The notes beneath the pieces were generated by a model. The model was given only the letters and a program-made list of their open reading frames with translations, was not told where the DNA came from and searched no databases. Position numbers and translations under genes: made by a program. This document shows, piece by piece, positions 10,633 to 63,984 of a stretch of DNA of 64,000 bases (positions within the stretch are counted from its first letter, which is position 1; every line of letters starts with the position of its first letter). Source of the stretch: an uncultured bacterium (GTDB taxonomy: Bacteria > Omnitrophota > Omnitrophia > Omnitrophales > Aquincolibacteriaceae). The DNA is taken from assembly GCA_964581425.1 (NCBI GenBank), contig CAZOOM010000001.1:5183-69182 (forward strand), written 5' to 3'.

Positions 10633-11718
10633 TTACTTTAGGATAATCTTAGCTGGAGGAAATCCGTTAAAGTTGGGGACAGCGCTTGCGCAGGAATAAG
10701 CCCCGATATTTTTCACGTAGACCACATCATTCATATAAAGTTCAGGAATTTCAGCGTCTGTAGCCAGAGTATCAAAAGAATCACACGTGGGTCCTGCCAG
10801 ACAACTTAAAAATTTCTGCCCTCGTCTTAGGGTTTTAAATTCGTATTTGCAGTGATCGAAAACCAGCCCTGAAAAATCCTGATAAACTCCGTCATTGATG
10901 TAGTAATAGTTTTTGTTATTACGGAAGGTACGGCCGACGACCTGAGTGACTAAGAGTCCTGCTGGTCCGGAGAAAAAACGTCCGGGTTCTGCAATAAAAT
11001 GGACTTTTTTGTCAAATTTGAGATGGCGGATATGTTTGCGAATCTCTGCAGCCATACGCTCAAAATTGATTCCGATTTCTCCGTCAAAATGGGGGATAGG
11101 GAATCCTCCGCCGATATCTACAATGCGTAGCAAAATCCCATTTTCCTTTGCCTCTTTAAAAATTCCAGATGTGATTTCAAGGGCCTGAAGATAAATCTCA
11201 ACATTTTTAGATTGAGAACCCACATGAAAACTAACGCCCACAGGGTGCAGACCAAGTTGCTTGGCTTTCTTCAGCATCAGAAAGGCGACTTCAGGGTCGG
11301 CACCAAATTTAAGGGAAAGATTGACCTGGCTTTTATCATTTTCAACTTTAAGACGGACAATGACATGAGCCCCGGGATAATGTTCCGCGATTTTATAAAG
11401 CTCGGGCTCGTTATCAAAAGTCATGAGTTTCACGCGCATGCGCTTTGCGGCCACAATGTCATCCACAGATTTGATGGTATTGGCAAAAATGATTTGATTC
11501 GGCTTGGCGCCGAGACGAAGCACTTGCCGCATTTCCCCAGCGCTTGCCACATCAAAACATGAGCCTAGTTTTAAAAAGGTCTGGATAATTTTAGGGTGAG
11601 GGTTTGATTTGATGGCGTAATAAGGAGTAACGTTTGGAAGCGCTTTTTGAAAGCGGCGAAACTGTTTTTCTAAAATCCCTTTACGAATGACCATAAAAGG
11701 GGTCTTGTGTTTTTTCAT
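10633..11718 (-). CDS. PLP-dependent group IV decarboxylase of the ornithine/arginine/lysine decarboxylase family. It is most likely an ornithine decarboxylase supplying putrescine.
   Basis: PLP-Lys motif YYAIKSNPHPKI. Gly-rich motif RIVDIGGGFP. Also FHVGSQ. The track ORF extends to 11862 and would overlap the hss stop at 11762 by 100 nt. Starts at 11718 (MKKHKTPFMV) or 11808 are more plausible. Confidence 0.8.
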   Translation of the reverse strand: MKKHKTPFMVIRKGILEKQFRRFQKALPNVTPYYAIKSNPHPKIIQTFLKLGSCFDVASAGEMRQVLRLGAKPNQIIFANTIKSVDDIVAAKRMRVKLMTFDNEPELYKIAEHYPGAHVIVRLKVENDKSQVNLSLKFGADPEVAFLMLKKAKQLGLHPVGVSFHVGSQSKNVEIYLQALEITSGIFKEAKENGILLRIVDIGGGFPIPHFDGEIGINFERMAAEIRKHIRHLKFDKKVHFIAEPGRFFSGPAGLLVTQVVGRTFRNNKNYYYINDGVYQDFSGLVFDHCKYEFKTLRRGQKFLSCLAGPTCDSFDTLATDAEIPELYMNDVVYVKNIGAYSCASAVPNFNGFPPAKIILK

Positions 11719-11761
11719 TAAAGTCCGGATGAGATTCTCTATTCCGGAGGGGTCAGCAGAC

Positions 11762-25800: not shown

Positions 25801-27219
25801 ACCGACTCTGACAGCATCTGCGTTTGCTGGCTTGAGTCCTTCCGGAAATGTTTTGGACCACACACCTACCACGGTTCCCTGAGGAAGATTGTAGTCAAAT
25901 TTCCAAACATCTTTTTCGAGCGTTTCATCGTAAGCCACGGCAACATTGCCTGAAGAATTACCGATATTAAAAACGCCTTTTTCTCCAGCATCAAAAAGGG
26001 TATAGGCCGGAAGCGGTCCAGAGTTTTTCACTTCAGTGGATTTGCGTTTTACAAATTCGAGTGAAAAATCAAGAGTTCCTTTGGCTTCACTACCGGTGGT
26101 TTCAGGATTTAAAATTAAACTCACTTCTTTCAAGGCTGCAATCGAAGACCAATCAATGGATTGCTGAATCGAGTTCCATCCGGATTTAAGCTGGAGGGGG
26201 ATGGTTTGAGTTCCCTGGCTGCCTTTGATTTCAAGCTGAGTGGAAATGGATTTTGCCTGAGCGTCGTCCAAAAGACGAATTCCAAGCTTCACCGTATTGA
26301 TGACTTCACCGGTTAATGTTTCAGGATAGTCTTTGGTCCAAAGTTTGACAGATCCCTTTTGAGGAAGGACATAATCAAGTTCAATGACGTCTTTTCCCAT
26401 GGCTTCATCAAAAGTAGAAGTCACAGTGCCCTTGGAAGCTTCTCCAGCATCAGCGCCATTTTCTTTGGCATCAAGATGCGAGTAGGAAGTTTTCACTTGA
26501 GCAGGTTGCGCGGCAGGCATTTCAATGTTCGGAGTTTCAATCTTGGGGGCAATTTTTTCTACAACTTCGGTTGCCTCTTTGGTAGCCGCAGGAATGACAT
26601 CGGCAACTTTGGCTTTTACGGTTTTGACGATTGGTGCGCGAAAAGAAAGATCCGAGGTGAAATCTAAAGTCCCTTTGACAGTTTCTGTGGCGCTTTTCGG
26701 ACTGATGATAAAAACAATTTGATCCAAATTTCCAATCGTTGACCAATCAATCGAAGCCTGGGCATTGGACCATCCTGATCTCACAGAAACCGGTACCGAC
26801 TGTGTATTGACAGTACCTCGGATTTCCATAGCAATCGAGATTTGAGCCGCTTGGCTTGCTTCAAGGGTTTTGATTCCAGCTTTGAGAAGGTTTACACTTT
26901 CAGGTGTGACTGCAGCGGGAAAGTTTTTTGTCCAAACGACCAAAGATGAGTTCGGGGCCAATGTGTAATCCAGTTCGAGCACATCTTTGCGCGCAGACTC
27001 ATCATAAGTTGAAGTTAGAGTCCCCTTGGCCTCTCCCTTGATCACAACGCCATTTTCTTTGGCATCGAGAAGGGAATAGGTGGCGGTTTCAGCTGCTTGC
27101 AACATTCCAAGATGTGGAATGGCAAAGAGTCCGGCAGTCAAGATAACGGCTGCCAGCATGAGCGCGGAAAAGCGCTGATGAGATGCGATCGCTTGTTTAA
27201 GACGGGTCCATGACTTCAT
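19900..27219 (-). CDS. Giant multidomain membrane protein of about 2440 aa. It has a signal/TM, three tandem ~150-aa extracytoplasmic repeats, a polytopic membrane domain of about 850 aa, and a GH94 glycoside phosphorylase module made of two N-terminal beta-sandwich-like regions plus an (alpha/alpha)6 catalytic domain. It resembles a cyclic-beta-1,2-glucan-synthase C-terminal region.
   Basis: GH94 hallmarks are present: GAYGFRDQLQD and the catalytic GDWND (about 20826-20840 on the minus strand), plus YCHGVQWL. The three repeats each carry ...LDAKENG...KGT.TST.DE...KDV.ELDY.L......WTK..P........K.GI.......A.......EI.G...TQ..P...KSGWN.....IDWS.I. The membrane region (about 22950-25500) has at least 16 predicted helices. 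The likely start is ATG 27219 with an AAGGAA RBS. The track ORF begins at 27270. The C-terminus is a Lys/Pro-rich tail. Confidence 0.85.
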   Translation of the reverse strand: MKSWTRLKQAIASHQRFSALMLAAVILTAGLFAIPHLGMLQAAETATYSLLDAKENGVVIKGEAKGTLTSTYDESARKDVLELDYTLAPNSSLVVWTKNFPAAVTPESVNLLKAGIKTLEASQAAQISIAMEIRGTVNTQSVPVSVRSGWSNAQASIDWSTIGNLDQIVFIISPKSATETVKGTLDFTSDLSFRAPIVKTVKAKVADVIPAATKEATEVVEKIAPKIETPNIEMPAAQPAQVKTSYSHLDAKENGADAGEASKGTVTSTFDEAMGKDVIELDYVLPQKGSVKLWTKDYPETLTGEVINTVKLGIRLLDDAQAKSISTQLEIKGSQGTQTIPLQLKSGWNSIQQSIDWSSIAALKEVSLILNPETTGSEAKGTLDFSLEFVKRKSTEVKNSGPLPAYTLFDAGEKGVFNIGNSSGNVAVAYDETLEKDVWKFDYNLPQGTVVGVWSKTFPEGLKPANADAVRVGVKIPENQNARQAAVKIEVKGSLDTQIIPILQLKTGWNSLREFIRWNKIGELREFVFVVSPMIVPPMNAKPEEIKPVMGSFFFDFDFNQTTFVERHATFLKLGLVLLTALIFSWFAGLVLKSSKSATPEKPKESPKGFSGRDFFTGTMTIFILALAIRIYSLGTSGILDVGFSWTFLAVALAGGLIAELLKIRLTGKHLSRGEVFQNIFLTGMLAVASSRLDLLQAPAGWSELFQINKLTACIAFLIYQIFNANSMCSSGKHLKKTPAFMIVLTPFLFGWLLLLENPILLQKLGLGLTLTLTKAWPAMAEFLGRALVLFLFNEIVTNSFGMLTKGRILKTAKAHWILLGVSLGATAAPMIAGLASSAGVASLPILLQAVIAVIATGLSFAGLWGEVYLLTGIFLDAGKNAAPTPENIFKNIDTGARKGFAYSSILMAILYALQITLKLSFVHSAMTSSPIFIGILAGALIFPFLKTIIETFDGSLPFFERTAYSYQNGWLYLRGAIAGYGFAVMFSQGMFTKAMPDRIVFGLMMGLLASGGVSLLRDIFYGLRHQGKIQTWKLYFTDSIFGIFVGSAVAFYLDAAQVPVIVEKFKLYTSSGFDPIAYNTIPLLNKWGRIDLGHYSGGVKLIFLESLAGVINWSIAAWLFAINKVFLQSIFEKDTTPIKFFFSKAGFASLIENLIYVLRWGLWMSPIIATFLRVMPEPTWYNQDGAIRTLFAIWHNTTSSPTDFHNWSLQVFLWMMAFDFLRILIWMDHMGLRVATLVNLSFIGMDRLDEKLSRFIGPAAAQRYIPEGVKRFTTWAPLLIPFYIPRGAEWEYVWSASEAMQNANRGKGLLAFLQSLSAGQMFFLMAGAILVCSFFAFLIRASRERAAKKALASFELSNREYKVTAKANAEVYSELTGKECDISRRSYDFMDPTGRILFIVDTTDAAKGKIVSWPIMGNCPREYFPNASVEKVEDSLKLTQTHNGVKSTIEIRLPDQDSPVELWNITVENLTEKPRQLKVVSYLEWVLNGWMHDRFHTQYARLYPEMEYVSGANAIISWQKSTKSMGFMASDLAPEGFLTGRVDFIGRGKSVWTPRALETLDFLPAKDTPACPTFDPIGSLMVNAPVGAQASVSMKLVIGYSKNKGIALDLIQKFLKPLAPKSVPAAGKKRSLLIGHGEVYPKTPQPYFEFLDKGNTMRVLTPFTPRPFDHGMSNPTHSVMVTNRGLHTSCNGNSQQNRLTPDWPDTVTKEIPTEAIYLYDQDQKEWFSPTYHPINDVSAKHDCDFSVDGTAVFRMSKGTLSTELTVFVPTDEPTGIYLLRIKNTGNQTRRLRVAPYFQMVLSFQPERSGPLVTKHDKALNALYFSNPRNIFRNGWAFASMSVNPELVETKRGRFFGDGRGPSHPYLVEMGHPDEKESKDPGQIAAFLGSVEIPSHQEFTLAVVLGQTDSEKDAARIVQKYKNLENAKKSLESTRQWWLALMESAKVETNQPEFDRYQNWLKYQALAERIWARKGFYQTSGAYGFRDQLQDTINLIWMDPALARKQILLHASQQFLEGDVFHWFFTLVDGRTAFSCRSHASDNPLWLAWAAVEYIRMTGDDTILDEMASYVMSEFPFAQLPKNKGGWGHLYHRTTRGDTLYKHCMRSIDLVIKKRTGKHGLPLMGTGDWNDGLDEIGGEGHGESVWLGFFLYYILKEMVPIIERKEGAQKKAFYVQKLEALKECLETTWRGDRYLRAFHDDGTEIGVKDSGIWEIDALTAAWAVMAGMNFERAVTVFNTALQVLERGSCILLGWPALREDSKPYLGRSSKYPEGVRENGMYCHGVQWLVRAARLLAEEFEARKDHAKAEEYRATAYRLWQKVSPIAHVTPQEIEIYGGQPNKQPADFLTTFELGRMIWNGYTGAAGWMLRQAFEGVAGATLIRNQLVLPSDLDKPRGNLKITKVKRDISKSPLKKVPEAASVKTEKPSTPSRKLVGAHE
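25545..27087 (-). repeat. Three tandem ~150-aa protein-domain repeats inside the giant ORF. This is the extracytoplasmic N-terminal region. A carbohydrate-binding-module role is possible.
   Basis: Protein residues about 62-215, 262-410 and 425-575 align with each other at roughly 30-40% identity. DNA identity is low, so this is an old duplication. Confidence 0.6.
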
Positions 27220-27957
27220 AGGATGGTTCCTTTTCTTCAGTGGTTTTTTAAAACTTAGCAAACAAATCAAAAAAATGATTTCAAGTCATCATGATTTTAG
27301 GAAGGTCGCAATTTGTTTTTGAAATACGCATTCGATTGCTCAAAACTTTTTGCGAGACTATTTTATTTCTTTATTAAGAGCCCGAGTTAACCAAGAACAC
27401 GAATCCCTTAATTATTTTTTTTCGATTGAACACTCGCAGATTGCCTTGGAAATTTCAGGAAGTGGATCGCTTGGGAGAGCGTTCTAACCTGATGCTTGCC
27501 AAAGGCCTAAGCAGAGTTCCCATCCTAAAAGGCCAGATGAACTTTCCTATTATATCCATGACAGGCGGATAGGTAAAAATTTTTCTTGATCTTTTTCAAC
27601 CTAATAAAAGGTCGCTCCCCATTGGGGTCTCATTCCTTATGAAAGAAGATAAAGACTTCATGAAATTGATCAAGAATGCAAACAAATGGGCTTGGATGGT
27701 CACAATCAGAATACAACTGACTAGCGGGTACCCCTTAGGTCCCTTATGGATTAGGAGCCTGATCGGTGAAGAATCTCCTTTTGGTAATCATCCCTCTCTT
27801 TTGAGGTCAGCTGATCCGGGAAAAGCCCAATTTCGATATCGTAAGAATCTCCTTTGAGGCCTGTACTCATGGGTACGGAGCCTTGTCTGAGCAAACGGTC
27901 TGCGTAGAGTTCCTTTTTAAAGAATCCCGAGTGAGTAATAAAAGGATGAGGCGAGTA

Positions 27958-34369: not shown

Positions 34370-36493
34370 ATGAGTCAATGTCCATCATCCAATCAAAAGA
34401 TAACAATTGAAGTGGAAAAAGAATTAGAAGAATATTCAGGTTGGATTCGCAAATTTCGAGCCGGAGAGATCGGGGATATTAAAATGCAGAAGATCCGTCT
34501 TCAGCTTGGGACCTATGCCCAGCGCCAGGACGGAGTTCAGATGCAACGCATCAAAATTCCAGGCGGCGTTCTTTCATCGGCTCAACTTTTGCAGCTTGCG
34601 CGTGCTGCAGAAAAGTACGGAAGCGGATTTATCCATTTCACAACACGTCAGGATGCTCAAATCTACTACATCAAGCTTGAAGATTGCCCCGCGCTTCTTC
34701 GGGATTTGATGTCGGTTGGCATCACGACACGCGAAGCTTGCGGAAATACGGTAAGAAATATTACTGCGTGCTACCGTTCCGGCATTGCTGCGGATGAAGT
34801 TTTTGACGTGACGCCTTATAACGAAGCGCTCTTTCGTTTTCTTCTCAGAAATAAATACAATCAAGTCATGGGACGCAAATTCAAAATTGCTTTTGAGGGA
34901 TGCGTTCAAGATCACTCAGGCATGCGCTTTCATGATATTGGCTGGAAAGCGGTGATTCAAAATGGAAAGCGCGGATTCCGGGTTTATCTTGGAGGCGGAC
35001 TTGGAGCCGTTCCGATTTTAGGAGAACTGTACACGGAATTTTTGCCTGAGGAAAAAATGCTGGAATTAGCAGCAGCGCTGGTACGGCTCTTTGATCGTTA
35101 CGGAGAACGTAAAAACCGGATGCAGGCGCGCATGAAATTTTTGATCAAGAAACTCGGATGGGAGGATTTTAAATCCAAACTGGATCAAGAACGTAAAGCA
35201 ATCAAGCTTCCTGCTTCAGCTAATGATTTTCTAGGGACGGTTCTCCAACAGAGAACCGTCGCTGACAGACCATTTCAAGCGGTTTCATCATCGATTGAAA
35301 AAAATATGGATTTTGTGCGTTGGACAGAAAGTCATTTGGTTGCTCATCGAGTTTCTGGTTTTCATGGCGTGATTGTCCGGCTCAAATTGGGAGATCTGAC
35401 CACGCCGCAAGCTGAAGCGCTAGCGAAGGTTGCAGATGATTTTTCGCAGGGAGAACTGCGCGTGACCATGGACCAAAATTTATTTCTTCCCTGGGTGCCT
35501 CAGAAGGCACTATTTGCGCTTTATCAAGCCCTTTCCAAAATCAATCTTGCGGATTCTGGAGGAGAAACTTTGGAAGATACAACGACTTGTCCTGGTGCAG
35601 ACACCTGCCGTCTTGGGATTACTTCTGCAAAAGGTCTTGGATCAAGCATCAGCGCTTCCTTTCGAGCGCAATTAGAAAGTCATCGCGCATTGACTAAAGA
35701 TCTGCGCGTTAAAATATCAGGATGTCCCAATGGCTGTGCGCAGCATGCGGTCGCTAGTATTGGATTTCAAGGAGCGGCGCTGAGTCAGGAAGGGAAAACC
35801 GTTCCTGCTCACGAAGTTTATGTCGGCGGTGACATTTGCTTGGATCAGACGCGTGTAGGTGAACGCGTGGGAAAATTTCCGGCACGAAACGGCCCTCAAA
35901 TCGTGGAAACATTAGTGGCGCTTTTTGCTAAGGAGAAAAATAAAGACGAATCTTTTGCCGCTTGTATGGTTCGTCTTGGAAAAGATCGAATCAAAAATGT
36001 GCTAGAACCACTTGCGAAAGTCCCTTCTTTTCAGGACGATCCAAGTTTTTATCAGGATTGGGGACACGACAACGAGAAATTTGCCATCCGTGCCGGCATC
36101 AAAGGAGAGTGCGCAGGTTCTCCGATTCAAGAAAAGGTTCCCACCTTTCACGAGGCTCGCGAGAAGTTTTCGCAAGCTGCTGCTTTGTTGGCACACGAAG
36201 AATGGGAGAATGCTCATATTCAAATTTATGAAGCCATAGCTGCAAGCGCACGCGTTCCTCTCTATGCTTTGATGGTAGATCCGTTTACGTCTGAACAAGT
36301 GATATGGGAATTTGAAAATATTTTTGTCCGAAGCGGAAAGACCTCTGCTGAGTGGGATCAATTTTCTGAAAAAGTAGAAGCCGAAAAAATCAAACCTGCG
36401 TCTGAAAAATCCGCACAAGTATTTTTAGAGTGGGCTAAAAAATTTCATTCTGTTTGCGAGCAGCTTGCAGAAAAACCTGCGCCAGCAGCGTAG
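34370..36493 (+). CDS. Ferredoxin-type sulfite/nitrite reductase hemoprotein (siroheme-[4Fe-4S], NirA/Sir family) with a C-terminal extension of about 150 aa.
   Basis: Siroheme/FeS Cys clusters TTCPGADTCRLG (C-x5-C) and SGCPNGCAQH (C-x3-C). The N-terminal half is duplicated with a degenerate site, ACGNTVRNITAC. Confidence 0.8.
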   Translation: MSQCPSSNQKITIEVEKELEEYSGWIRKFRAGEIGDIKMQKIRLQLGTYAQRQDGVQMQRIKIPGGVLSSAQLLQLARAAEKYGSGFIHFTTRQDAQIYYIKLEDCPALLRDLMSVGITTREACGNTVRNITACYRSGIAADEVFDVTPYNEALFRFLLRNKYNQVMGRKFKIAFEGCVQDHSGMRFHDIGWKAVIQNGKRGFRVYLGGGLGAVPILGELYTEFLPEEKMLELAAALVRLFDRYGERKNRMQARMKFLIKKLGWEDFKSKLDQERKAIKLPASANDFLGTVLQQRTVADRPFQAVSSSIEKNMDFVRWTESHLVAHRVSGFHGVIVRLKLGDLTTPQAEALAKVADDFSQGELRVTMDQNLFLPWVPQKALFALYQALSKINLADSGGETLEDTTTCPGADTCRLGITSAKGLGSSISASFRAQLESHRALTKDLRVKISGCPNGCAQHAVASIGFQGAALSQEGKTVPAHEVYVGGDICLDQTRVGERVGKFPARNGPQIVETLVALFAKEKNKDESFAACMVRLGKDRIKNVLEPLAKVPSFQDDPSFYQDWGHDNEKFAIRAGIKGECAGSPIQEKVPTFHEAREKFSQAAALLAHEEWENAHIQIYEAIAASARVPLYALMVDPFTSEQVIWEFENIFVRSGKTSAEWDQFSEKVEAEKIKPASEKSAQVFLEWAKKFHSVCEQLAEKPAPAA

Positions 36494-39874: not shown

Positions 39875-41239
39875 TTATTTCTTTGCTTCGAACTTGGCAG
39901 GCAAGCGATCTAAAATTTCCTGAATAAGCACTTCACCTTGGCGGGCATAATCAATAGCTTCTCCAAGGATGCGTGCGGCTTCCTGCGGAGCATGAAAACC
40001 CATGGAATTTTCAGCATTAACAAAGTCAGCCCGCCACTGGGCTTTGCGTTGGAGTTCATAAATAGCAGTTAAATCCTCTTCTTTAACTCCCTGCTTTTTA
40101 GCTTCTGCAATTTTAGAGATGAGGGATACGAGTGCGTCTTCGGCCCTGTTTAAGAGTTTCTCATTGCGGTCCTGGATTATGTCCACACGTTCCTGCATCT
40201 CTTTTTCTGTGAAGTGATGACACTGCAAGCAGGCGCGCGAAATATTTAGAAGAGGGCTTCGGATGTAGTGGTCTGTTACTTTGGTGGCGCCTTCACGAAC
40301 ATAGGGCATGTGACAATCAGCACAGGCCACCCCACTTTTAGCGTGAACCCCCTGGCTCCACATTTCAAATTCGGGATGCTGAGCTTTCAAAACTTCAGCG
40401 CCTGTGATTTCGTGTTTCCAATCGTAAAAACGATGGCCGTCCTTAAATTTGTATTGATTATAAAAAGCCTCGATCTCTTCGACCTTCAGGCCATTGTTCC
40501 AGGGATAGAACAAAGTGGTTTTCGAACCACAGTAATACTCCACATGACACTGGGCGCAGACAAACGTGCGCATTTCTTGACGTGTTGCGGAAAGATTGGG
40601 GTCATAATTCTTAATGCCTTCAAGCTCTTTGAGGACTTTGATTCCGCGGAGGAATGCCGGACGAGTGACGCGCAGTTCCATGGTTTTCGGATCATGACAA
40701 TCAATACAAGCCACCGGATGCTTCGCAAGCTGCCAGGCCTCTTGGATCGGCATGTTGGAAACTTTCTCAAAGCCGGCTTGAATATCTCCATCGCCTGCTT
40801 TTTCATAAATATTTTTGAGACCTCCTGCGTGACACTGAATGCAGGAACCAATTTGCTTAAATTTTTTCGTGCGTTGGGTTTCTTGTTGATCGAGTAAGGA
40901 ATAATAGTGGCCGCGGCGGGGATTGTAATCAACGCTAAAAGCATATCCTGCAAAAATGGTTTTCAGCCGCGGATCTTTTTCTAGCTTGGAAATCCCTTCG
41001 CTTCCACCGTAACGCGTATGAGTTTTGAGCGACGTTTTTTTGTATCCATCTAGCTCACGGGGATAATTTCTTCCCCAAATCTCAGGATCAATGGTTTCCT
41101 CCGTGAGTTCTGTCACTTCAACGTTCCGAACCTTGGCTTCTTCTTTGCGTTCACGGATATTTAAAAGAAGGGCCACAAGTGAAGCGGTAGCGATTGCGGT
41201 CAGGCTAATGATGAGCAAGTAGGGAAGTAATTTTTTCAT
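39875..41239 (-). CDS. nrfA: Pentaheme cytochrome c nitrite reductase (ammonia-forming) catalytic subunit.
   Basis: Five CxxCH motifs: CIQCH, CIDCH, CAQCH, CADCH and CLQCH. Also an N-terminal signal anchor, FYPWNNG, and VACADCHMPY. All hemes are CxxCH, with no CxxCK. This is the Campylobacter/delta-type NrfA pattern. Confidence 0.85.
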   Translation of the reverse strand: MKKLLPYLLIISLTAIATASLVALLLNIRERKEEAKVRNVEVTELTEETIDPEIWGRNYPRELDGYKKTSLKTHTRYGGSEGISKLEKDPRLKTIFAGYAFSVDYNPRRGHYYSLLDQQETQRTKKFKQIGSCIQCHAGGLKNIYEKAGDGDIQAGFEKVSNMPIQEAWQLAKHPVACIDCHDPKTMELRVTRPAFLRGIKVLKELEGIKNYDPNLSATRQEMRTFVCAQCHVEYYCGSKTTLFYPWNNGLKVEEIEAFYNQYKFKDGHRFYDWKHEITGAEVLKAQHPEFEMWSQGVHAKSGVACADCHMPYVREGATKVTDHYIRSPLLNISRACLQCHHFTEKEMQERVDIIQDRNEKLLNRAEDALVSLISKIAEAKKQGVKEEDLTAIYELQRKAQWRADFVNAENSMGFHAPQEAARILGEAIDYARQGEVLIQEILDRLPAKFEAKK

Positions 41240-56326: not shown

Positions 56327-57217
56327 GTGGCTCAGACTTTAAAAGTGGATCGAAAAACAGCGCTTCTTGTTTTCTTATTTGAAAAGCTTGCTGATATGAA
56401 AAAGACGCGCGTGCGTCAGCTTCTCAAATTCGGATGCGTGGTGGTGAACCAGCAAGTGGTCACTCAATTTGATCATCCGCTGGAGCCTGGTGATGAAGTC
56501 CGGATAGAAGGTTCCAAAGCACGAGCAGCCACGCCTTCGTTACTTTTTCAGATCCAAATCCTTTTTGAAGATGGACAGCTGATTGCCATCAATAAACCCG
56601 CAGGACTTTTAAGCATTGCGACCGAGAAAGTTTAGCGCGAGACTGCTATTTTTGCAGTAAACGATTATTTAAATAAAAAAGCTGAAGCAGTGAAATACTC
56701 TTCAGGTCGTTATCAAAAGCGCGTTTTTATTGTGCATCGATTGGACCGCGATGTTTCCGGTGTCATGATTTTTGCAAAAAATGAAGAGGTTAAATTTAGA
56801 CTGCAGGAAAACTGGGATCAGTTTACTAAAGAATATTGCGCGGTGGTTGAAGGTGCTCCTCCTGAGTCCTCGGGAACTTGCGTGAGTTATCTTGCAGAAA
56901 ACTCCATCCTGCGTGTGGTGAGCGGACCTAGGCGTCCTGGAGCTAAAGAAGCCGTTACGCATTATGAAGTGATGAAAAAGGGAAGAGATTATTCACTGCT
57001 TGCCATTCGCTTAGGCACCGGAAGAAAACATCAAATCCGCGTTCAACTTGCGGATCTCGGTTGTCCGATTGCTGGGGACAAAGATTATGGAGCTCAGACC
57101 AATCCCATCAAACGTATTGCGCTTCACGCGCGCGAACTTCATTTGATTCATCCCATGACGGGTGAACCGCTTGATTTGATCTGCCCGATTCCCGAACCCT
57201 TCAAACGTCTTGTCTGA
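56327..57217 (+). pseudogene. RluA-family pseudouridine synthase with an S4-like N-terminal domain. It is interrupted by a single in-frame TAG at 56633-56635.
   Basis: Track ORFs 56327..56635 and 56690..57217 are in the same frame. The 54 nt between them contain no further stop. The merged translation ...INKPAGLLSIATEKV*RETAIFAVNDYLNKK...VHRLDRDVSGVMIFAKNEE...GRKHQIRVQLADLGCPIAGDKDYG is a complete RluA/RluD-type enzyme. TAG is used as a normal stop elsewhere in the window. Confidence 0.6.
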
Positions 57218-57235: not shown

Positions 57236-57595
57236 TTAGGCATCTCGGTGAACGGTATTTGGAGAAAAGGCGGGGAGACAAACCGCAATATATTCGCAGT
57301 CACTTGAAGGGGTACTGTACTGCACCCATTCGCCTTTAGGAATGATTACAGCCTGATTTTCTTTGACATCAAACTCTGCAGAGTTTGTTTTTACGTGAAG
57401 CGTTCCTTTTGAAACCAGTGTGTATTCATCAAATTCCGGAGTTTGTCCAGGCTCCACCCAGCCTTTGGGACTTTTCATGCGTGCCATGCTGAGATCGGAA
57501 GTCTTTGAATTGACTCGGCCAATGAACTCTTCAATCTGTTTGGGTTTGTTTCCTGCTGCTTGGATGATAGAAGCCTTTGCAATCAGTGTCGCCAT
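57236..57595 (-). CDS. Cupin-domain protein.
   Basis: It is 119 aa and its beta-strand pattern fits cupin_2, with GTLHVKTNSAEFDVKENQAVIIPKGEWVQY. Confidence 0.55.
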   Translation of the reverse strand: MATLIAKASIIQAAGNKPKQIEEFIGRVNSKTSDLSMARMKSPKGWVEPGQTPEFDEYTLVSKGTLHVKTNSAEFDVKENQAVIIPKGEWVQYSTPSSDCEYIAVCLPAFSPNTVHRDA

Positions 57596-57600
57596 TTTGA

Positions 57601-58005
57601 TTATTTCCCTCCCATTATTTTTTTGAGATTTTCTAGATCTTGTTTCACTAATTTTAAATCTTGGAAAAACTGGGCTTCAGTCATAGCTCTTCTTTGGAAG
57701 AGAGTGAATGTGATTTCACTCCCAGAAGCATTGGAGATAACGCGCATGGGGACATAGATTTTTTCTCCTGAGGCAGAGGTAATGAAGTGATCTAAAACTC
57801 CAAATTTATTTTTCTCACTCATTTTGATTTTGACTGGGCCTTGATCTGTTTGAAGAATCCACTTCCCATTTGCTTTGTGAATAGATTTCGCAAACGTTGT
57901 TGCCCATTTGGGAAGATTGAGAGGATTGGAAACAAACTTGTAAATCTCGCTGGCGCTGCAATTGATCCCAAGTGCCAGGGTGCTTGTTTTGAGTGGAGCG
58001 TTCAT
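57601..58005 (-). CDS. SRPBCC (START/Bet v1-like, polyketide-cyclase-2 type) small protein.
   Basis: It is 134 aa with the pattern EIYKFVSNPLNLPKWATTF. It lies 5 nt from the cupin gene on the same strand. Confidence 0.5.
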   Translation of the reverse strand: MNAPLKTSTLALGINCSASEIYKFVSNPLNLPKWATTFAKSIHKANGKWILQTDQGPVKIKMSEKNKFGVLDHFITSASGEKIYVPMRVISNASGSEITFTLFQRRAMTEAQFFQDLKLVKQDLENLKKIMGGK

Positions 58006-58259
58006 GGAGCTGAATTATACGACAGTTATGCTTAGGGTGATAAGATGCCTCTCTTCTTGCGTCTCCTGAGTGGGCGTCAAAGCGGATTTCCATTTTGAGC
58101 AAACATGATGTATTGTTTACATATCTCGTTAAAGCATTATGTTGTATGGATTTAAGTCATTGATAAAAAATGATTTTGAGAGCCTTTTAAAGCTGCTAGA
58201 TGTTAAGTGGCTTTTGGGGCCCGACGGCAGTTGAATGAATTCGAACAAAGGATTGCTTT

Positions 58260-59570
58260 GTGAAAATATTATTTTTTACCCGGGAATTTTTGGGGGCCAG
58301 CCTTTGCCTCCGATTAGTGGCTGAAGGCCATCAGGTGAAAGCTCATGTCACCGACCCGGAGTCATTTCATACGCTTGACGGATGGATCGAAAAATTTCCA
58401 AGTTTACCGGCGGGGCTTGATTGGGTAGGCCGCGATGGGTTGATTATTTTTGATGATATCGGGTTTGGAGTTTTACAGGATCAGCTGCGGCGCGAAGGAT
58501 TCTTTGTGGTGGGTGCCAGCGAGCAGAGCGAAAAGCTGGAAGAAAATCGAAGTTATGGGCAGCGGATTTTTTTAGAAAACGGTCTCAAAACCATCCCTAG
58601 TCATCTTTTTTCTTCGGCAGGAGAGGCCGCTCAATTTGTGGAAAAAAACGGCGGAGAGTGGGTTGTCAAGCGCAACGGACGAGATGAAAAAATGTCCGTT
58701 TACGTGGGAAAGCTTCCGGACGGTCGTGATGTTGCCAATCTTTTGAGGCATGATGTCCAAAACGGGAATGAGAGTGCATCTGGTTACATCTTACAAAAAA
58801 GAATTCGAGGGATTGAAATGGCCACCGGGCGATTTTTTAATGGCACGGATTGGGTCGGACCGGTTCAGCTGAATGTGGAACACAAAAAACTTTTTCCCGG
58901 TGACTTGGGTCCCATGACTGGCGAGATGGGCACGCTGGTTTGGCACACCGGCGAACAAAACCGGCTTTTCCAGGAAATTCTGGCGCCGCTTCAATCTTAT
59001 TTGAGAAAGAGCGGTTTCCGGGGTTATGCGGATATCAATTGCATGGTCAATGAAGAAGGGGCGTGGCCGCTCGAAGCTACGATCCGTTTCGGGTATCCTA
59101 CGGTTCAAGCGCAGATGGCTTTGCATGAATCCCCCTGGGGAGAGTTACTCAGTGCACTGGCTCGCGGGCAAAGTTATCCGTTGCATTTGAAATCCGGTTA
59201 CTCTGTGGTGGTCCTGGTGGCCTGTCCGCCGTTTCCATTCAGTGTGGTGAGCCGCGACAGTTTCACCACGCCGCGAGGATTGCACGTTCATTTTAAAACG
59301 CTACCGAGTGAGGAAGATTTCCGGCACATTCATTTTGAGGATGTGGACCGGCATCCAAACCAGATTGGCGGTGTGGATTACATTGTGGCCTACAACACCG
59401 GATTTGTTCTTCACGTAACGGGGCATGGCGATACGGTGGAAAAGGCGCGTCAGGCTGCTTATCAACGGATTTCAAACATTGTCATCCCCCGTATGTACTA
59501 CCGCACTGACATCGGAGAAAAATTTCTTCACGAAGATGAGGAAAAGCTCCGCTCCTGGGGATATTTATGA
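58260..59570 (+). CDS. PurD-like (phosphoribosylamine-glycine ligase fold) ATP-grasp ligase paralog.
   Basis: GTG start. Colinear similarity to PurD across the ATP-grasp region (VVKRNGRDEKMSVYVGKLPDG, MTGEMGTLVWHTG, YADINCMVNEEGAWPLEATIRFGYP) and across the C-terminal domain (VLHVTGHGDTVEKARQAAYQRI). It lacks the PurD N-terminal GGREHA motif. Confidence 0.7.
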   Translation: MKILFFTREFLGASLCLRLVAEGHQVKAHVTDPESFHTLDGWIEKFPSLPAGLDWVGRDGLIIFDDIGFGVLQDQLRREGFFVVGASEQSEKLEENRSYGQRIFLENGLKTIPSHLFSSAGEAAQFVEKNGGEWVVKRNGRDEKMSVYVGKLPDGRDVANLLRHDVQNGNESASGYILQKRIRGIEMATGRFFNGTDWVGPVQLNVEHKKLFPGDLGPMTGEMGTLVWHTGEQNRLFQEILAPLQSYLRKSGFRGYADINCMVNEEGAWPLEATIRFGYPTVQAQMALHESPWGELLSALARGQSYPLHLKSGYSVVVLVACPPFPFSVVSRDSFTTPRGLHVHFKTLPSEEDFRHIHFEDVDRHPNQIGGVDYIVAYNTGFVLHVTGHGDTVEKARQAAYQRISNIVIPRMYYRTDIGEKFLHEDEEKLRSWGYL

Positions 59571-60118
59571 AAGGGGCCATGCTTCGATTTGAGACAAATC
59601 CGCCGCTTACGGATTTTTTGGCGGTGGATTTGAAAAAACTGGAGGAAACGTGTTTTCCTGCTTCTTGGATCGAACCAGATGTTCACCATTTTTATGAGTC
59701 CGAGCTGAAAAAAAAGGGAACACTCAGCATTTTTGTTTTTGATTCAGATCGTGTTGTAGGGTTTGCGTTGGCATTGCCTCAGCCTGAGGCGATCCCTCAT
59801 CTTCTTGAGGCCGATTCTATTTTGCGTGAGGACCGCACCTTAATGTATTTGGAAACAATTCAGATCACTCCTTCACTGCGAGGAAAAGGGTACGGGAAAA
59901 AACTTCTGAGCATGATGACGGAGCTTTGTCGTGAGCGGGGATATTTAGGGCTGGCCATGCATGCCAGAGTCTCGAATGGTTTTAATGAAATTGCAAAACA
60001 GATTCCAGGAACGCGAGTTCAGTCGTCCCGTCTTGTGACCTCATGGCCTTTTGGCGGTCATGAGCCTTTCGAATATCTGGAGCTTTGGTTTGTAGATTCC
60101 AGGGGCGGTCTTGTATGA
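59567..60118 (+). CDS. GNAT-family N-acetyltransferase.
   Basis: MYLETIQITPSLRGKGYGKKLL matches the acetyl-CoA-binding motif Q/RxxGxG/A. Its start overlaps the ATP-grasp stop as ATGA. Confidence 0.75.
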   Translation: MKGAMLRFETNPPLTDFLAVDLKKLEETCFPASWIEPDVHHFYESELKKKGTLSIFVFDSDRVVGFALALPQPEAIPHLLEADSILREDRTLMYLETIQITPSLRGKGYGKKLLSMMTELCRERGYLGLAMHARVSNGFNEIAKQIPGTRVQSSRLVTSWPFGGHEPFEYLELWFVDSRGGLV

Positions 60119-60609
60119 TGCTCGTTCCTAAATTCCGCTACCTGATGATCGGGCATTTAGTGAATGCACTTCTCGATTATGGTGGTGATTATATTCTCTA
60201 TCCGGCTGTCATTTGGAAATTTGGACTTTGGAAGGGCGGGGCCATTATGTCCTGCATCTCCCTTACTCTTTGCTGGTGCATCTTAAAATTTTATGACTGG
60301 TCCAAAAAAGACTGGCTGGGAATCGAGGCTCTTAAGTCTCTGAAAACTTATGATGGGGACAGTCGAGCTGGGCGCATCCTGAGTTGGACTATGCGTCAAA
60401 GTGATCCGGTTGCCTGCATCCTTCTCTCAATTTCTCACGATCCGTTCATAACAACCGCCTACCTTCGCCGCGGCCATTTTGGGGGCATGGACAAACGGGA
60501 TTGGAAAATTTTTCTGCTCAGTTGGTTAATTTGCAATGTTTGGTGGTCGCTTTTATGCTTCGCCGGCGTGGAAACCCTTTCTGAACTCTGGCATTGGCTA
60601 TTTTCCTGA
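60115..60609 (+). CDS. Small integral membrane protein of unknown function.
   Basis: Four predicted helices, Trp/Cys-rich. Its start ATG overlaps the GNAT stop as ATGA. The track ORF begins at 60085. Confidence 0.5.
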   Translation: MMLVPKFRYLMIGHLVNALLDYGGDYILYPAVIWKFGLWKGGAIMSCISLTLCWCILKFYDWSKKDWLGIEALKSLKTYDGDSRAGRILSWTMRQSDPVACILLSISHDPFITTAYLRRGHFGGMDKRDWKIFLLSWLICNVWWSLLCFAGVETLSELWHWLFS

Positions 60610-60658
60610 CCGCCATAAATCGGATGGACGTTCCTCCTTCAGGAAATATAATGAACTC

Positions 60659-61588
60659 ATGACCGAAACTGATTTTTTTCCCCCCAACTGGTATGCGATT
60701 GCGGAATCGAGAGAAGTTGCTTCCCGTAAGCCTTTGTCGATGAAGCGCTTTGGTGTGGAGTTGGTGCTTTGGAGAGATCATTCAGGAAATCTTTCCATTA
60801 TGCGTGACTTGTGCCCTCATCGTTCTGTTAAATTAAGTCAGGGGACGATTCGCGGGGACGTATTGCAGTGCTGTTTTCACGGTTTTCAATTCTCTTCTCA
60901 AGGACGGTGTCGTTATGTTCCTGAAATCAAGCGTGATGCTCCAGGCCTTCAGGTTCAAACATTCCGAAACTGTGAAAAGTATGGATTCATCTGGATTTGG
61001 TGGCCGGAGAGCGAACCTGAAAAAAATCATGAGCCCGCTTGGTTTGATGAAATTAAGCCCGACATGGTTTGGACGTCTCTCCATCAAACTTGGAACAGTC
61101 ACGTGACACGTTGTATTGAAAACCAGTTGGATTACGCACATCTGCCTTTTTTACACCGAAAATCTATCGGGCGCCACTTTGATCCCTCGCGGGAAGTATT
61201 TTTTGAACTTACGAAAGACGGTATTCGATTTTTTTTCGAATCAGATCCAAACAAAGATAAGACCCTGCTGGCTTTCCGGATGCCGAATCTCTGGATCAAT
61301 AAAATCACGTCGAGGTATGTTTTGCTTGTGGCATTTGCACCGATCGATGAGACTCAGACCAAATTTTACGTGCGCACCTATCAGAATTTTTTGAAAGTGC
61401 CCGTGCTTGGGCCGCTTGTTACGGGATTCATGAATCAAGTGAACAAATTGATTTTGCGCGAAGATCGAAGTGCTGTGGAAACGCATCCTCGCGGCCTTTC
61501 AAGTTTGCAAGCTTCTTTTGAAAGACTCTTTCCAAGCGACAAAGGCATTCGGCATTTTCGGTCGCTTTGGTCAGGATCTGTTTCCTGA
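60659..61588 (+). CDS. Rieske [2Fe-2S] non-heme-iron oxygenase (PaO/Tic55/CMO-like).
   Basis: Rieske motif CPHR-x16-CCFHG at about 60812-60880. The mononuclear-iron motif is ENQLDYAHLPFLH (E-x3-D-x2-H-x4-H). Start ATG 60659 with an AGGAAA RBS. The track ORF begins at 60536. Confidence 0.8.
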   Translation: MTETDFFPPNWYAIAESREVASRKPLSMKRFGVELVLWRDHSGNLSIMRDLCPHRSVKLSQGTIRGDVLQCCFHGFQFSSQGRCRYVPEIKRDAPGLQVQTFRNCEKYGFIWIWWPESEPEKNHEPAWFDEIKPDMVWTSLHQTWNSHVTRCIENQLDYAHLPFLHRKSIGRHFDPSREVFFELTKDGIRFFFESDPNKDKTLLAFRMPNLWINKITSRYVLLVAFAPIDETQTKFYVRTYQNFLKVPVLGPLVTGFMNQVNKLILREDRSAVETHPRGLSSLQASFERLFPSDKGIRHFRSLWSGSVS

Positions 61589-61596
61589 ATGGGAAC

Positions 61597-62076
61597 TTAA
61601 GATCGCTCGCGCTTGATGCTTTGAATGACCTGGTCTAGGCTGTGAAGAAAGTTAGAGCGGTCTTCTTTTTGAAACGGACGAGGTCCGCCGCCGGAAACTT
61701 CTCCGGTATTTCGAAGTTCAGTCATGAGGTCCCGCATCGCAAGAAGGTGTCCGATATTTTCTTCGGTGAATACTTCACCGTTTGAGCTAATTCCTCGAGC
61801 GCCATTTTTCACAATTCGATAGGCGAGAGGAATATCCGCCGTGATGACGATATCATTTTTCGCCGCATGTTCTGCGATCCAGTCATCCACCGCATCCAGC
61901 TGTCGGCTTTCGACCACGATTTGCTTTGCACTTTCCGCGCCGCAGATGCGCATCGATGAATTGGATACGAAGGTCACGCTGAGTGCGTGCCGCTTTGCAA
62001 CTTTCAACACTTCTTGTTTGACTGGGCACGCATCCGCATCGACAAATATTTCCAACATCCTATTCTCCGAATCCAT
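61597..62076 (-). CDS. UPF0178/YaiI-family (DUF188) protein.
   Basis: MLEIFVDADACPVKQEVLKVAKRH matches the YaiI N-terminal signature. It is 159 aa. Confidence 0.75.
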   Translation of the reverse strand: MDSENRMLEIFVDADACPVKQEVLKVAKRHALSVTFVSNSSMRICGAESAKQIVVESRQLDAVDDWIAEHAAKNDIVITADIPLAYRIVKNGARGISSNGEVFTEENIGHLLAMRDLMTELRNTGEVSGGGPRPFQKEDRSNFLHSLDQVIQSIKRERS

Positions 62077-62244
62077 GGATTACCATGAATGGTTTCCTAA
62101 GCTCACTTGGGACTGTGACACGCGTCACGCGTAATTTCCCAAACTCCTGATACACTTTAACACAGTCTAGTCCCGCCACCCAACCGTGATGGACGCGGCA
62201 CTCGTCCATTTCCCTTTTTAATAACCGAATAACGCTAAGGATTT

Positions 62245-63984
62245 ATGACACCAACAATCTATGCTTCATGCGAGCGCGGTACTAAACCCCGCATTCTTTT
62301 TTCAAGCGTATTTGGTCCCTATGCCCAGGACGACGAGTTTGGCAGCCGGAAAATCAATCCCATGGAGCTTTACCATAATCAGGTGACGCGCACTCAAGGA
62401 GCTTTTTCGCTTCGGATGTTTCACCGCTCCTGGGGACTGATGATGATCCAGGCAAATATTCAGGCTCCATGTGCCATGCTGGATTTCCCGACACTTGAGC
62501 GATTTATCGAAGAAATTACTCAGAATCAATATGACATCATTGGTATCAGCGCCATCATGCCGAACATTGGTAAGGTCAAAGAGATGTGCCGTTTGATTCG
62601 TCTGCATCAACCCAAGGCGATCATCGTGGTGGGTGGGCACATTTCCAACATGACAGACATTCGTAACCGGGTGGATGCAGATCACATTGCGACGGGCGAT
62701 GGAGTTCACTGGTTCCGGCATTTTCTCGGCGAAGACGTGTCTCAGAAAGTGAATCATCCGCTCATCCTTTCGGGGATCAACACGCGCTCGATGGGGCTTG
62801 ATGTGCGGCGCAAAAAAGGGGAAGTGGCGGCGACGCTCATTCCTTCTGTGGGATGTCCAATGGGATGCAATTTCTGCGCGACGACCGCGATGTTCGGCGG
62901 CAAAGGAAAGTTCGTCAATTACTATGAAACGGGCGACGAGCTTTTTCACGTGATGTGCGAAATCGAACGCGATCTCGAGATCCGATCATTTTTTGTGATG
63001 GACGAAAATTTCTTGCTGCATCGCAAGCGTGCGCTTCGAGTTTTAGAACTCATGGAGCAGCATCAAAAATCGTGGTCGCTTTATGTCTTTAGTTCCGCGC
63101 GTGTGCTTCTTTCCTACACCATCGATCAACTGGTAGGCCTCGGAATTTCCTGGGTGTGGATGGGACTCGAAGGAAAACAAAGTCAGTACGCCAAACTTTC
63201 AGGAGTTGATACGTTTGATTTAGTGAAACAGTTTCATTCTCACGGCATTCGCATTTTGGGTTCCAGCATCATCGGTCTCGAAGAACACAAGCCAGAAATC
63301 ATGGATGAAGTGATTGATTACGCCGTCGCACACGATACTGATTTTCACCAATTCATGCTTTACACTCCGATTCCCGGAACTCCGCTTCATGCCGAGCACG
63401 CAGCGGGCGGAACGCTTCTTGCTCAGGAAGAATTTGATGAGGCGGACATTCACGGGCAGCTCAAATTTAATTACAAACATCCTCACATCCAAAATGGAGA
63501 AGAAGGCGAATATTTAATTCGGGCCTTTGACCGGGATTATGAAAAAAATGGGCCGAGCGTTCTAAGAATTGCACGCACCACTTTGGAAGGCTGGAAGCGT
63601 TACAAAAATCATCCAAACAAACGCATCCAGGCGCGCTTTGCTTACGAAGCGAAAGAATTATGGGTGAAGTACGCGGGCTCACTTTGGGCGGCTCAGAAGT
63701 GGTTTCAGGATAATCCCCAGCTGCTCCAAAAAATCCAGGGCGTTTTAAAAGATATTCAAAATGAATTTGGGCTTAAATCCAAACTGGCTGCACCCATTGC
63801 CGGACGCATTGTTCTTTCAAAGATTAGAAAAGAAGCAAAATTTCTTGAGGATGGAAATACCTACGAACCGCCCACCTTCTATGAACTCAATCCTGCGATG
63901 ATGGCGCTTCGAAAAGACAAGCGTGTTGACTTCAAACCGGCCCGCTGGGCCATTCCCTTAGAAAAAGGGGCTGTCTGCAAATAG
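62245..63984 (+). CDS. B12-binding domain radical SAM protein (class B-like).
   Basis: N-terminal cobalamin-binding Rossmann segment DIIGISAIMPN...AIIVVGGH. Radical SAM cluster motif GCPMGCNFC (C-x3-C-x2-C) at about 62854-62877. It is 579 aa with a C-terminal helical domain. Confidence 0.85.
   Translation: MTPTIYASCERGTKPRILFSSVFGPYAQDDEFGSRKINPMELYHNQVTRTQGAFSLRMFHRSWGLMMIQANIQAPCAMLDFPTLERFIEEITQNQYDIIGISAIMPNIGKVKEMCRLIRLHQPKAIIVVGGHISNMTDIRNRVDADHIATGDGVHWFRHFLGEDVSQKVNHPLILSGINTRSMGLDVRRKKGEVAATLIPSVGCPMGCNFCATTAMFGGKGKFVNYYETGDELFHVMCEIERDLEIRSFFVMDENFLLHRKRALRVLELMEQHQKSWSLYVFSSARVLLSYTIDQLVGLGISWVWMGLEGKQSQYAKLSGVDTFDLVKQFHSHGIRILGSSIIGLEEHKPEIMDEVIDYAVAHDTDFHQFMLYTPIPGTPLHAEHAAGGTLLAQEEFDEADIHGQLKFNYKHPHIQNGEEGEYLIRAFDRDYEKNGPSVLRIARTTLEGWKRYKNHPNKRIQARFAYEAKELWVKYAGSLWAAQKWFQDNPQLLQKIQGVLKDIQNEFGLKSKLAAPIAGRIVLSKIRKEAKFLEDGNTYEPPTFYELNPAMMALRKDKRVDFKPARWAIPLEKGAVCK

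Follow-up and report, generated by a model that had tools for sequence, protein, structure and literature searches.

What does a PurD-like enzyme do once it has lost the residues by which PurD holds its substrates, and when its gene lies beside those of an acetyltransferase and a membrane protein? The question is raised by a locus in a 64,000-nucleotide stretch of DNA (hereafter the window, meaning the whole stretch analyzed) from an uncultured bacterium of the Omnitrophota (family Aquincolibacteriaceae; GenBank assembly GCA_964581425.1, contig CAZOOM010000001.1, positions 5,183 to 69,182 of the forward strand). Between window positions 58260 and 63984 lie genes for a PurD-derived ATP-grasp protein that is a putative amide ligase, a GNAT N-acetyltransferase, a small membrane protein, a Rieske non-heme-iron oxygenase, a YaiI/YqxD (DUF188) protein, and a B12-binding radical SAM protein. 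The original prediction for this DNA had described the layout of these six open reading frames (ORFs), all of which are present where it placed them, and had read the first four as an operon that, with the nearby radical SAM gene, might tailor a small molecule or a lipid head group. Such a tailoring role is a reasonable reading, although the set of genes to which it applies is smaller. In the reading favored here, to which we assign a probability of roughly 45%, the first three genes form a cassette that would ligate a carboxylate to a polyamine-type amine, cap a free amine, and pass the product to a membrane partner.

Relationship of the ligase to PurD

The ligase gene, the first of the cassette, occupies positions 58260-59570 of the forward strand, begins with GTG, and encodes 436 amino acids (aa). 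In Pfam, its product carries the GARS_A (44.7 bits, cut-off 27) and GARS_C (39.1 bits) domains of PurD without any match to GARS_N. It scores 121.1 bits against the purD model TIGR00877, for which the equivalog cut-off is 288, and the match covers residues 72-422 only. The solved sequence relatives of the ligase are PurD structures alone, and the alignment of the ligase-family profile with these solved PurDs begins at residue 73.

Alignment with E. coli PurD bears out the earlier description of the protein as colinear with PurD but lacking the GGREHA motif. In place of the GGREHA loop the ligase has REFLGA or DFSGA, and it lacks a 14-residue segment of the N-domain. The B-loop sequence KADGLAAGKG of E. 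coli PurD aligns with KRNGRDEKMS in the ligase (GLAAGKG becoming NGRDEKM), the Mg/glycine motif IEFNCRFGDPE with LEATIRFGYPT, and the C-domain sequence GGRVL with TGFVL, by which the C-domain Arg is lost. Where the PROSITE signature PS00184 specifies R-[LF]-G-D-P-E-x-[EQIM] (as quoted in PMC3261824), the ligase reads RFGYPTVQ and its family consensus RFGxP[AT]. The residue that follows the Mg-binding Glu, an Asn in PurD, is an invariant Thr in the ligase family. The ATP-grasp core is kept: the ATP-binding Lys, EHK, GPxTxEMG, and ExxxR are all found in the same alignment, and K137, E186, E272, and R276, which align with PurD, are invariant across the family, as are EHK and GPxTxEMG.

The substrate residues of PurD have been assigned in the human enzyme, GARS, in which Arg13 and Glu14 of GGREHA bind the phosphate and ribose of phosphoribosylamine, Asp217, Arg292, Asp295, and Glu297 bind glycine, and Arg385 is the sole substrate residue in common with PurT; the GLAAGK sequence is shared by all GARS (PMC2978367). 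Only the equivalent of Arg292 and a conservative Asp217-to-Glu replacement survive in the ligase. Because the residues that bind phosphoribosylamine and glycine have been lost, the ligase would be expected to join a different acid to a different amine. That the protein is a PurD paralog recruited to another amide ligation, as had been proposed, is well supported by its score far below the TIGR00877 cut-off, by the loss of PurD-specific residues, and by the retained ATP-grasp core; its predicted activity is that of an amide ligase.

An extremely improbable alternative is that the gene is a divergent purD of purine biosynthesis. The colinearity from residue 73, the restriction of solved relatives to PurD, the label phosphoribosylamine-glycine ligase that some sources attach to family members, and a PurH-N-like gene near the ligase in one related locus would all fit such a gene. 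The score and the lost residues argue otherwise, and tblastn searches with E. coli PurD (E 0.01 or better) and PurH found no match in the 64-kb window. The family is moreover centered on phages and on Patescibacteria, a group in which de novo purine synthesis is generally lacking. Similarly defective PurD-like proteins of haloarchaea have been judged nonfunctional as GARS (PMC3261824). Where the labels "phosphoribosylamine-glycine ligase" or "GARS C-domain protein" are applied to the family in these lineages, they would thus not denote purine enzymes.

The PurH-N-like gene deserves description in its own right. It lies at positions 4180-4710 of a Paceibacterota locus (L055), adjoins the ligase gene, and encodes a stand-alone homolog of the PurH N-terminal (IMP cyclohydrolase) domain that is 42% identical to residues 9-194 of E. 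coli PurH. The same BLAST-defined ORF cluster is also found near the ligase in a second locus (L070). A residual link of the ligase loci to purine metabolism through these two cases is possible.

Structure of the cassette

The ligase gene is followed on the same strand by the second and third genes of the cassette, which encode the GNAT (59567-60118, 183 aa) and a small, mostly helical membrane protein of an uncharacterized family (60115-60609, 164 aa). The ligase stop and the GNAT start share a 4-nucleotide (nt) ATGA overlap (ttATGAaa, 59567-59570), and an identical overlap joins the GNAT stop to the start of the membrane-protein gene (gtATGAtg, 60115-60118); both had been recognized from the sequence. 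The Rieske gene (60659-61588, forward strand, 309 aa), which had been said to start within or just after the membrane-protein gene, starts just after it, 49 nt past the stop codon and without overlap. The longest Rieske ORF opens at 60536, and the homologs and the database protein begin at the ATG at 60659. Within the 49-nt gap is a promoter-like match, TGGACG-16-TATAAT (60625-60652, forward strand), a near-consensus -35/-10 pair that agrees at 10 of 12 positions and ends 7 nt before the Rieske ATG; it is a match to the consensus only. Because the Rieske gene sits behind this gap and its promoter-like site, the translational coupling originally proposed for a four-gene operon holds for the ligase, GNAT, and membrane-protein genes and is not extended to the Rieske gene.

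Translation from the predicted starts gives the same proteins as the NCBI-derived entries P0001, P0121, P0122, P0124, and P0125. An independent read set contains a 1.9-kb contig on which ligase end, GNAT, membrane protein, and Rieske start follow in the same order and the GNAT is 100% identical. Upstream of the cassette, about 117 nt 5' of the ligase start, lies a weak promoter-like site, TTTACA-16-TATGTT (58116-58143, forward strand), whose role is inferential; promoter-like sites are no more numerous in the region than expected from shuffled sequence.

Partners of the ligase

The neighborhoods of related ligases indicate which genes belong together. When 1.84 billion representatives were searched with a profile, about 780 clusters (50% identity) reached an E of 1e-30 or better, and the best 150 of these are mostly full-length matches that include the N-domain. 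Taking one genome per species gave 226 ligase loci, of which the best 80 are used for neighborhood counts. ORFs within 4 kb of the ligase were called and then clustered in 83 ligase loci, the 80 being the species-level genome loci.

In 69 of the 80 loci a membrane partner is encoded within 4 kb of the ligase; it belongs to one of three families: an EamA-like permease (44 loci), a 238-aa family (14), or the family found in the window (10, with relatives of the window protein in 15 of the 83 loci). Two of these families occur together only once. Homology among the three was considered and rejected on hhalign probabilities below 1%, and they are analogous only. The transferase partner varies too. 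An amine-modifying transferase is present in 34 of the 80 loci and two together in only two loci; the partners are SET proteins (8 loci), GNATs (8), Fmt-like formyltransferases (6), GAMT homologs (6), and PRMT/PrmA-like proteins (4). The GAMT-like partner is a close homolog of guanidinoacetate N-methyltransferase (PDB 1xcj, E 2.5e-44). In the window the transferase is a GNAT with a clear domain match (Acetyltransf_1, PF00583, 48.5 bits against a cut-off of 20.7) and the acetyl-CoA motif R/Q-x-x-G-x-G/A in the form LRGKGYG; its orthologs occur near the ligase in 9 of the 83 loci. The closest relatives of the window ligase, which are only 57-59% identical to it (L001-L004; 59% at best), have the order ligase, SET, membrane protein in overlapping genes, with SET in the slot of the GNAT. 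One homolog has an apparent C-terminal SET domain, weak evidence of a ligase-SET fusion.

Because non-homologous proteins replace each other in the same slot, the slot itself appears to have a conserved functional role. We take the real unit to consist of the ligase, a membrane protein, and a transferase that modifies amines. A functional unit that includes these had been proposed, and its three-gene core is indeed co-conserved across the ligase loci; the Rieske and radical SAM genes, which had been included, are not. As a control, hidden Markov models of the partner families match 0-1 of 80 equally sized loci centered on the radical SAM family, except for the generic histidine kinase, which matches 25. 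A defined chemical logic is suggested by the interchange of partners, which extends to three unrelated membrane proteins, transferases of five kinds, and decarboxylases of two (described below).

Two further proteins accompany the ligase. A multi-span sensor histidine kinase lies beside it in 45 of the 80 loci, often with a response regulator, and an acidic, Cys-rich, membrane-anchored protein of about 180 aa with CDP repeats and no Pfam match occurs in 24 of the 83 (for example, L043 10680-11216). Both bear on the nature of the acceptor, as does the prevalence of the membrane partner, which is mostly directly adjacent to the ligase. If the acceptor belonged to the envelope, whether as a lipid head group, a wall polymer, or a lipid-linked precursor of peptidoglycan, the ligase and membrane partner would add an amino acid or amine group that is then acetylated, methylated, or formylated, and the surface charge would be altered. 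Histidine kinases of this type are usual for envelope-modification systems, and the combination of an EamA-type protein with a formyltransferase is reminiscent of the Arn pathway. We nevertheless consider an envelope acceptor unlikely: signatures of glycosyltransferases, Mur ligases, lipid synthases, and flippases are not consistently linked to the ligase, the membrane protein matches no known fold, and the polyamine genes described below and the close GAMT homolog point toward soluble substrates. Lipid head-group aminoacylation is in itself an established resistance strategy (PMC12419801).

The membrane protein of the window also has homologs apart from the ligase. In two loci it directly follows a gene for a protein of 444-463 aa (L084 6623-8519; L087 6246-8570). 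These two proteins were considered as ligase relatives and rejected; they are fusions of the same kind of GNAT to a domain of about 260 aa that has no match in Pfam or PDB. The domain occurs as a stand-alone gene near the ligase in four genome loci, and one of the two fusion loci (L087) also has an AdoMetDC-family gene.

Polyamine genes and a proposed mechanism

The identity of the amine is suggested by genes of polyamine type, which are found in the flanks of 25 of the 80 ligase loci. A decarboxylase is present in 22, of the AdoMetDC-family pyruvoyl type in 18 and of the pyridoxal phosphate (PLP) type acting on ornithine, arginine, or diaminopimelate in 4; because these counts sum to 22, the two types never share a locus. 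Pfam matches further identify a SpeD-SpeE fusion and a second SpeE (aminopropyltransferase) directly 5' of the ligase in L015, a SpeE 5' of the ligase in L024, and, in L065, an agmatinase of the arginase family; they also show that L040 combines two AdoMetDC paralogs with the ligase, a SET protein, a GNAT, and a membrane protein. The main subfamily of AdoMetDC adjacent to the ligase has the motifs ESHISIHTFP...DVYTC, and bona fide-looking paralogs in the same loci have HTWP...D[VI]FTC. Many of the anomalous SpeD homologs that are common in Nitrospirota and in bacteria of the candidate phyla radiation decarboxylate ornithine or arginine (Li et al., PMC10407285). Guanidino groups are the targets of GAMT-like and PRMT-like partners, and primary amines those of SET, GNAT, and Fmt. 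A precedent for the ligation is the ATP-grasp enzyme HsvC, which condenses L-Val with amidinospermidine (PMC6187163).

The window itself encodes a candidate source of polyamine. On the reverse strand at 10633-13273, a saccharopine-dehydrogenase-like protein (503 aa) is followed by a PLP-dependent decarboxylase of the ornithine/diaminopimelate/arginine type (409 aa), which is lysA-like but below the cut-off. The pair can be read as carboxyspermidine dehydrogenase and decarboxylase (CASDH/CASDC), by which route the organism probably makes spermidine or norspermidine.

In the proposed mechanism, the ligase would activate a carboxylate as an acyl phosphate, which would then be attacked by the amine, most likely a diamine, a polyamine, or another decarboxylated basic amino acid. 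The GNAT would acetylate a free amine on either the substrate or the product, a methyl- or formyltransferase taking the equivalent part in other lineages. The capped amine could be on the acyl moiety, as in the succession of PurD and PurN, or at the amine's distal end. The membrane protein may export the product, receive it, or anchor the process at the membrane, and an EamA-type permease or another membrane protein would fill this role elsewhere. The predicted product is an N-capped acyl- or aminoacyl-polyamine. Should the product be a modified polyamine or a polyamine-decorated envelope component, the cassette would represent a new branch of polyamine metabolism and would help to account for the way in which episymbionts condition the host or their own surface.

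Distribution and viral homologs

The best 80 of the 226 ligase loci belong mostly to Patescibacteria, and also to Verrucomicrobiota, Victivallales, Kiritimatiellales, Nitrospirota, and Desulfuromonadales-type genomes. The nearest relatives of the window ligase point to the Verrucomicrobiota/Kiritimatiellota neighborhood. In the candidate phyla radiation, whose genomes are small and metabolically poor, the ligase gene ranks with the better-conserved ones, and it turns up again in the phages of these bacteria. The ligase family was found in no curated family, solved structure, or publication, and a search of the literature for a PurD paralog, or for an ATP-grasp protein with AdoMetDC, in candidate phyla radiation bacteria returned nothing specific.

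Full-length members of the ligase family are encoded by 219 viral contigs in IMG/VR, of which 80 were kept (L178-L257; best-segment identity 28-43%). The viral gene usually closes a rightward operon of large, low-complexity proteins and precedes leftward replication genes. No match for the viral ligase or its neighbors was found in PHROGs. In the phage MW202796.1 the ligase gene is unannotated (L176 12001-13302), and a GNAT is encoded four genes upstream. One homolog of 1236 aa (P0509) carries its ligase domain at residues 598-1018, flanked by a phage portal domain on the N-terminal side and a Mu-F-like head-morphogenesis domain on the C-terminal side, which suggests a virion-associated form of the ligase. 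Inteins with Hint and LAGLIDADG domains interrupt P0376, P0383, P0499, and other homologs of 740-1120 aa at profile positions of about 221-225 and 264-278, near GPxTxEMG and ExTxR. An anti-phage defense system was considered as a role for the cassette and rejected, since no PADLOC model matched the ligase, GNAT, membrane protein, Rieske, or radical SAM protein, nor the GNAT fusion protein of L084.

The viral copies are among the observations that weigh against a soluble polyamine conjugate. Viral homologs occur without any of the cellular partner families, and the portal-ligase-MuF fusion is left unexplained by a soluble metabolite. Polyamine genes are absent from the flanks of 55 of the 80 loci; neither the window nor its closest relatives have one adjoining the cassette, and the putative CASDH/CASDC pair lies 45 kb from it. 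SET, PRMT/PrmA-like, RimI-like GNAT, and Fmt-like enzymes typically modify proteins or tRNA, which a macromolecular target would fit equally. The membrane protein of the window matches no recognizable transporter fold or other known fold. Rfam offers no riboswitch or other clue to a ligand: it has no match in the window at gathering thresholds and none in 57500-62400 at E up to 1, and in 22 related loci it gave only RNase P, tRNA, and rRNA. Finally, the neighborhoods are built from crude ORF calls and BLAST clustering, and the taxon labels of many of the metagenome-assembled genomes are those of their depositors.

Several of these points would be met by a protein target, which we judge to be distinctly unlikely all the same. 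The ligase would then add an amino acid to the side chain or terminus of a protein or peptide, as do RimK, tubulin-tyrosine ligase, and the graspetide enzymes; the GNAT, SET, PRMT-like, or Fmt partner would modify the same polypeptide, and the membrane protein would be the target or the exporter. The position of the phage copies at the end of a structural operon, with one fused between portal and MuF, fits such a function, and the partner families are best known for modifying Lys, Arg, or the N-terminus of proteins. The nearest solved relatives of the GNAT include, weakly, the N-terminal acetyltransferase Naa80, and inteins mark the ligase as a highly conserved protein. Microviridin clusters likewise have the layout of ATP-grasp, GNAT, and exporter. 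However, neither the window nor the set of loci shows a conserved precursor-peptide ORF 5' of the ligase, and the ligase is of the PurD type rather than the RimK/MdnC type. A protein target also leaves the neighboring decarboxylases, SpeE, and agmatinase unexplained, and the GAMT homolog is a small-molecule enzyme. The more specific candidate of a cluster for a graspetide or other peptide that is made on the ribosome and modified after translation (RiPP) was rejected; the small ORFs upstream are conserved only in near-identical relatives, and the ligase is PurD-type.

A more general proposal can be made, which we hold only tentatively and on balance doubt. The ligase may define an unrecognized and very widespread amine-conjugation system, with hundreds of protein clusters, that makes N-capped acyl- or aminoacyl-polyamines or a polyamine-decorated envelope, in which the cap (acetyl, methyl, or formyl) and the membrane partner are swapped by lineage. 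The system would be near-core in many Patescibacteria, and its phage copies, as the portal-ligase-MuF fusion suggests, would be delivered with the virion or act on it.

Neighboring genes and other features of the window

The three genes that follow the cassette are a co-directional Rieske gene, a YaiI/YqxD (DUF188) gene on the reverse strand that converges on it (61597-62076), and a forward-strand B12-binding radical SAM gene (62245-63984, 579 aa). The Rieske protein matches Rieske (78.2 bits), VanA_C, and Ring_hydroxyl_A in Pfam. Both metal motifs quoted in the original prediction are found intact in the translation, CPHR...CCFHG and E-x3-D-x2-H-x4-H, the latter as ENQLDYAHLPFLH. Its closest solved relatives are SxtDIOX, SxtT, KshA, and NdmA (E 4e-24 to 2e-16). 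The protein falls below every NCBIfam equivalog cut-off; the best match, to SdmA (NF052579), scores 74.1 against 600 bits and covers the N-terminal half only. The identity of the YaiI protein is clear (DUF188, 149 bits; NF001095, 172.8 bits against a cut-off of 139), and its gene precedes the radical SAM gene as had been stated.

The radical SAM protein scores 40.7 bits against the B12-binding domain (cut-off 32.1) and 28.2 against Radical_SAM, just under the cut-off of 29.5. It has the CxxxCxxC motif as CPMGCNFC, and the features of class B (B12-binding) enzymes are present. No relative was found among PDB sequences and no equivalog in NCBIfam, where the best match is HpnJ (TIGR03471, 54.3 bits against a cut-off of 577.6). 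The family is large, with at least 552 confirmed metagenome relatives among at least 600 candidates, of which 80 that are 59-76% identical were kept (L096-L175). A divergent histidine kinase of about 320 aa lies 5' of the gene in 40 of these loci. The radical SAM gene belongs to a very conserved orphan family and appears to form a transcription unit of its own, behind the opposite-strand YaiI gene.

Might all of these enzymes act in one pathway, in which amide ligation, acetylation, hydroxylation, and C-methylation follow from the ligase, GNAT, membrane protein, Rieske, and radical SAM genes? The genes lie near one another, the Rieske gene runs in the same direction and follows after only 49 nt, with no terminator-like site found in the gap, and the order from ligase to Rieske gene recurs in the independent read set of the same organism. 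A single pathway is still highly unlikely. Relatives of the Rieske, YaiI, and radical SAM proteins are absent from all 83 ligase loci. Rieske orthologs at 68, 47, and 45% identity stand in unrelated gene contexts, and none of the 80 kept radical SAM loci has a relative of the ligase, GNAT, membrane protein, Rieske, or YaiI beside it. The cassette and the radical SAM gene have an opposite-strand gene between them, the Rieske gene is preceded by a promoter-like site, and neither a reductase nor a ferredoxin partner is nearby. The inclusion of the Rieske and radical SAM enzymes in the pathway was therefore not upheld; the Rieske, YaiI, and radical SAM genes appear to be unrelated neighbors, functionally independent of the cassette, and any co-expression may be an accident of position. 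If the promoter-like site in the 49-nt gap works, the Rieske transcript would be almost leaderless.

Elsewhere in the window, an RluA-type pseudouridine synthase gene on the forward strand (56327-57217) appears to be broken by an in-frame stop or frameshift into two ORFs, 56327-56635 and 56690-57217, and may be a pseudogene or a sequencing error. Genes for a NirA/sulfite-reductase-type hemoprotein (34370-36493) and an NrfA-type cytochrome c nitrite reductase (39875-41239) lie within 5 kb of each other, a pairing that hints at a nitrite-ammonifying metabolism. Two giant ORFs, at 2062-6792 and 19900-27270, encode 1576 and 2456 aa, respectively.

Comparison with known systems

The nearest known relative of the ligase is PurD itself (TIGR00877; PDB 1GSO, 2XCL, 2YS6), with which it shares colinear ATP-grasp A and GARS_C domains from residue 73, the ATP-binding Lys, (D/E)HK, the GPxTGxMG-like loop, the Mg-binding Glu, and the Arg of RFG. 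PurD differs in having GARS_N with GGREHA, GLAAGK, the Asp and Glu of RFGDPE, and the C-domain Arg, all of which the ligase has lost. Unlike PurD, the ligase is partnered by a membrane protein and an amine-modifying transferase and has no context of pur genes, although the formyltransferase that follows the ligase in some lineages echoes the sequence of PurD and then PurN.

Similar trios are known from microviridin biosynthesis, which combines the ATP-grasp enzymes MdnB and MdnC with the GNAT MdnD and the transporter MdnE, and from the Ngg system for N-acetylglutaminylglutamine amide, which has a GNAT and an ATP-grasp enzyme. The microviridin and Ngg ligases are RimK-like, whereas the cassette ligase is PurD-like, no precursor peptide was found with it, and its GNAT is swappable with methyl- and formyltransferases.

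The closest parallel in proposed mode of working is with the phevamine (hsv) operon and its HsvB and HsvC, dapdiamide DdaF, and the E-64 pathway, in which an ATP-grasp enzyme joins an amino acid to a polyamine-type amine and a short operon includes an amine-modifying enzyme (PMC6187163; PMC12568646). Kinship of sequence with this group is claimed at the level of the ATP-grasp superfamily only. The cassette differs from the HsvB/HsvC operon in having no amidinotransferase and in having a conserved membrane partner. Extra PurD-like proteins of haloarchaea (Hlac_1553, rrnAC0307), which lack GARS_N and the Mg2+ sites and do not conserve the Asp of RFGDPE, were judged not to be GAR synthetases (PMC3261824); they are likened to the ligase by these described defects, which are similar to its own.

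Among the neighbors, the protein encoded at 60659-61588 shares its Rieske domain and the start of its catalytic domain with the monooxygenases SxtT, SxtDIOX (GxtA), KshA, NdmA, and DdmC; it is set apart from SxtT/SxtDIOX-type oxygenases by scores below all equivalog cut-offs and by the lack of a reductase gene nearby. ATP-grasp amide ligases, in sum, are a known kind of enzyme, and the ligase of the cassette represents an uncharacterized, PurD-derived branch of them.

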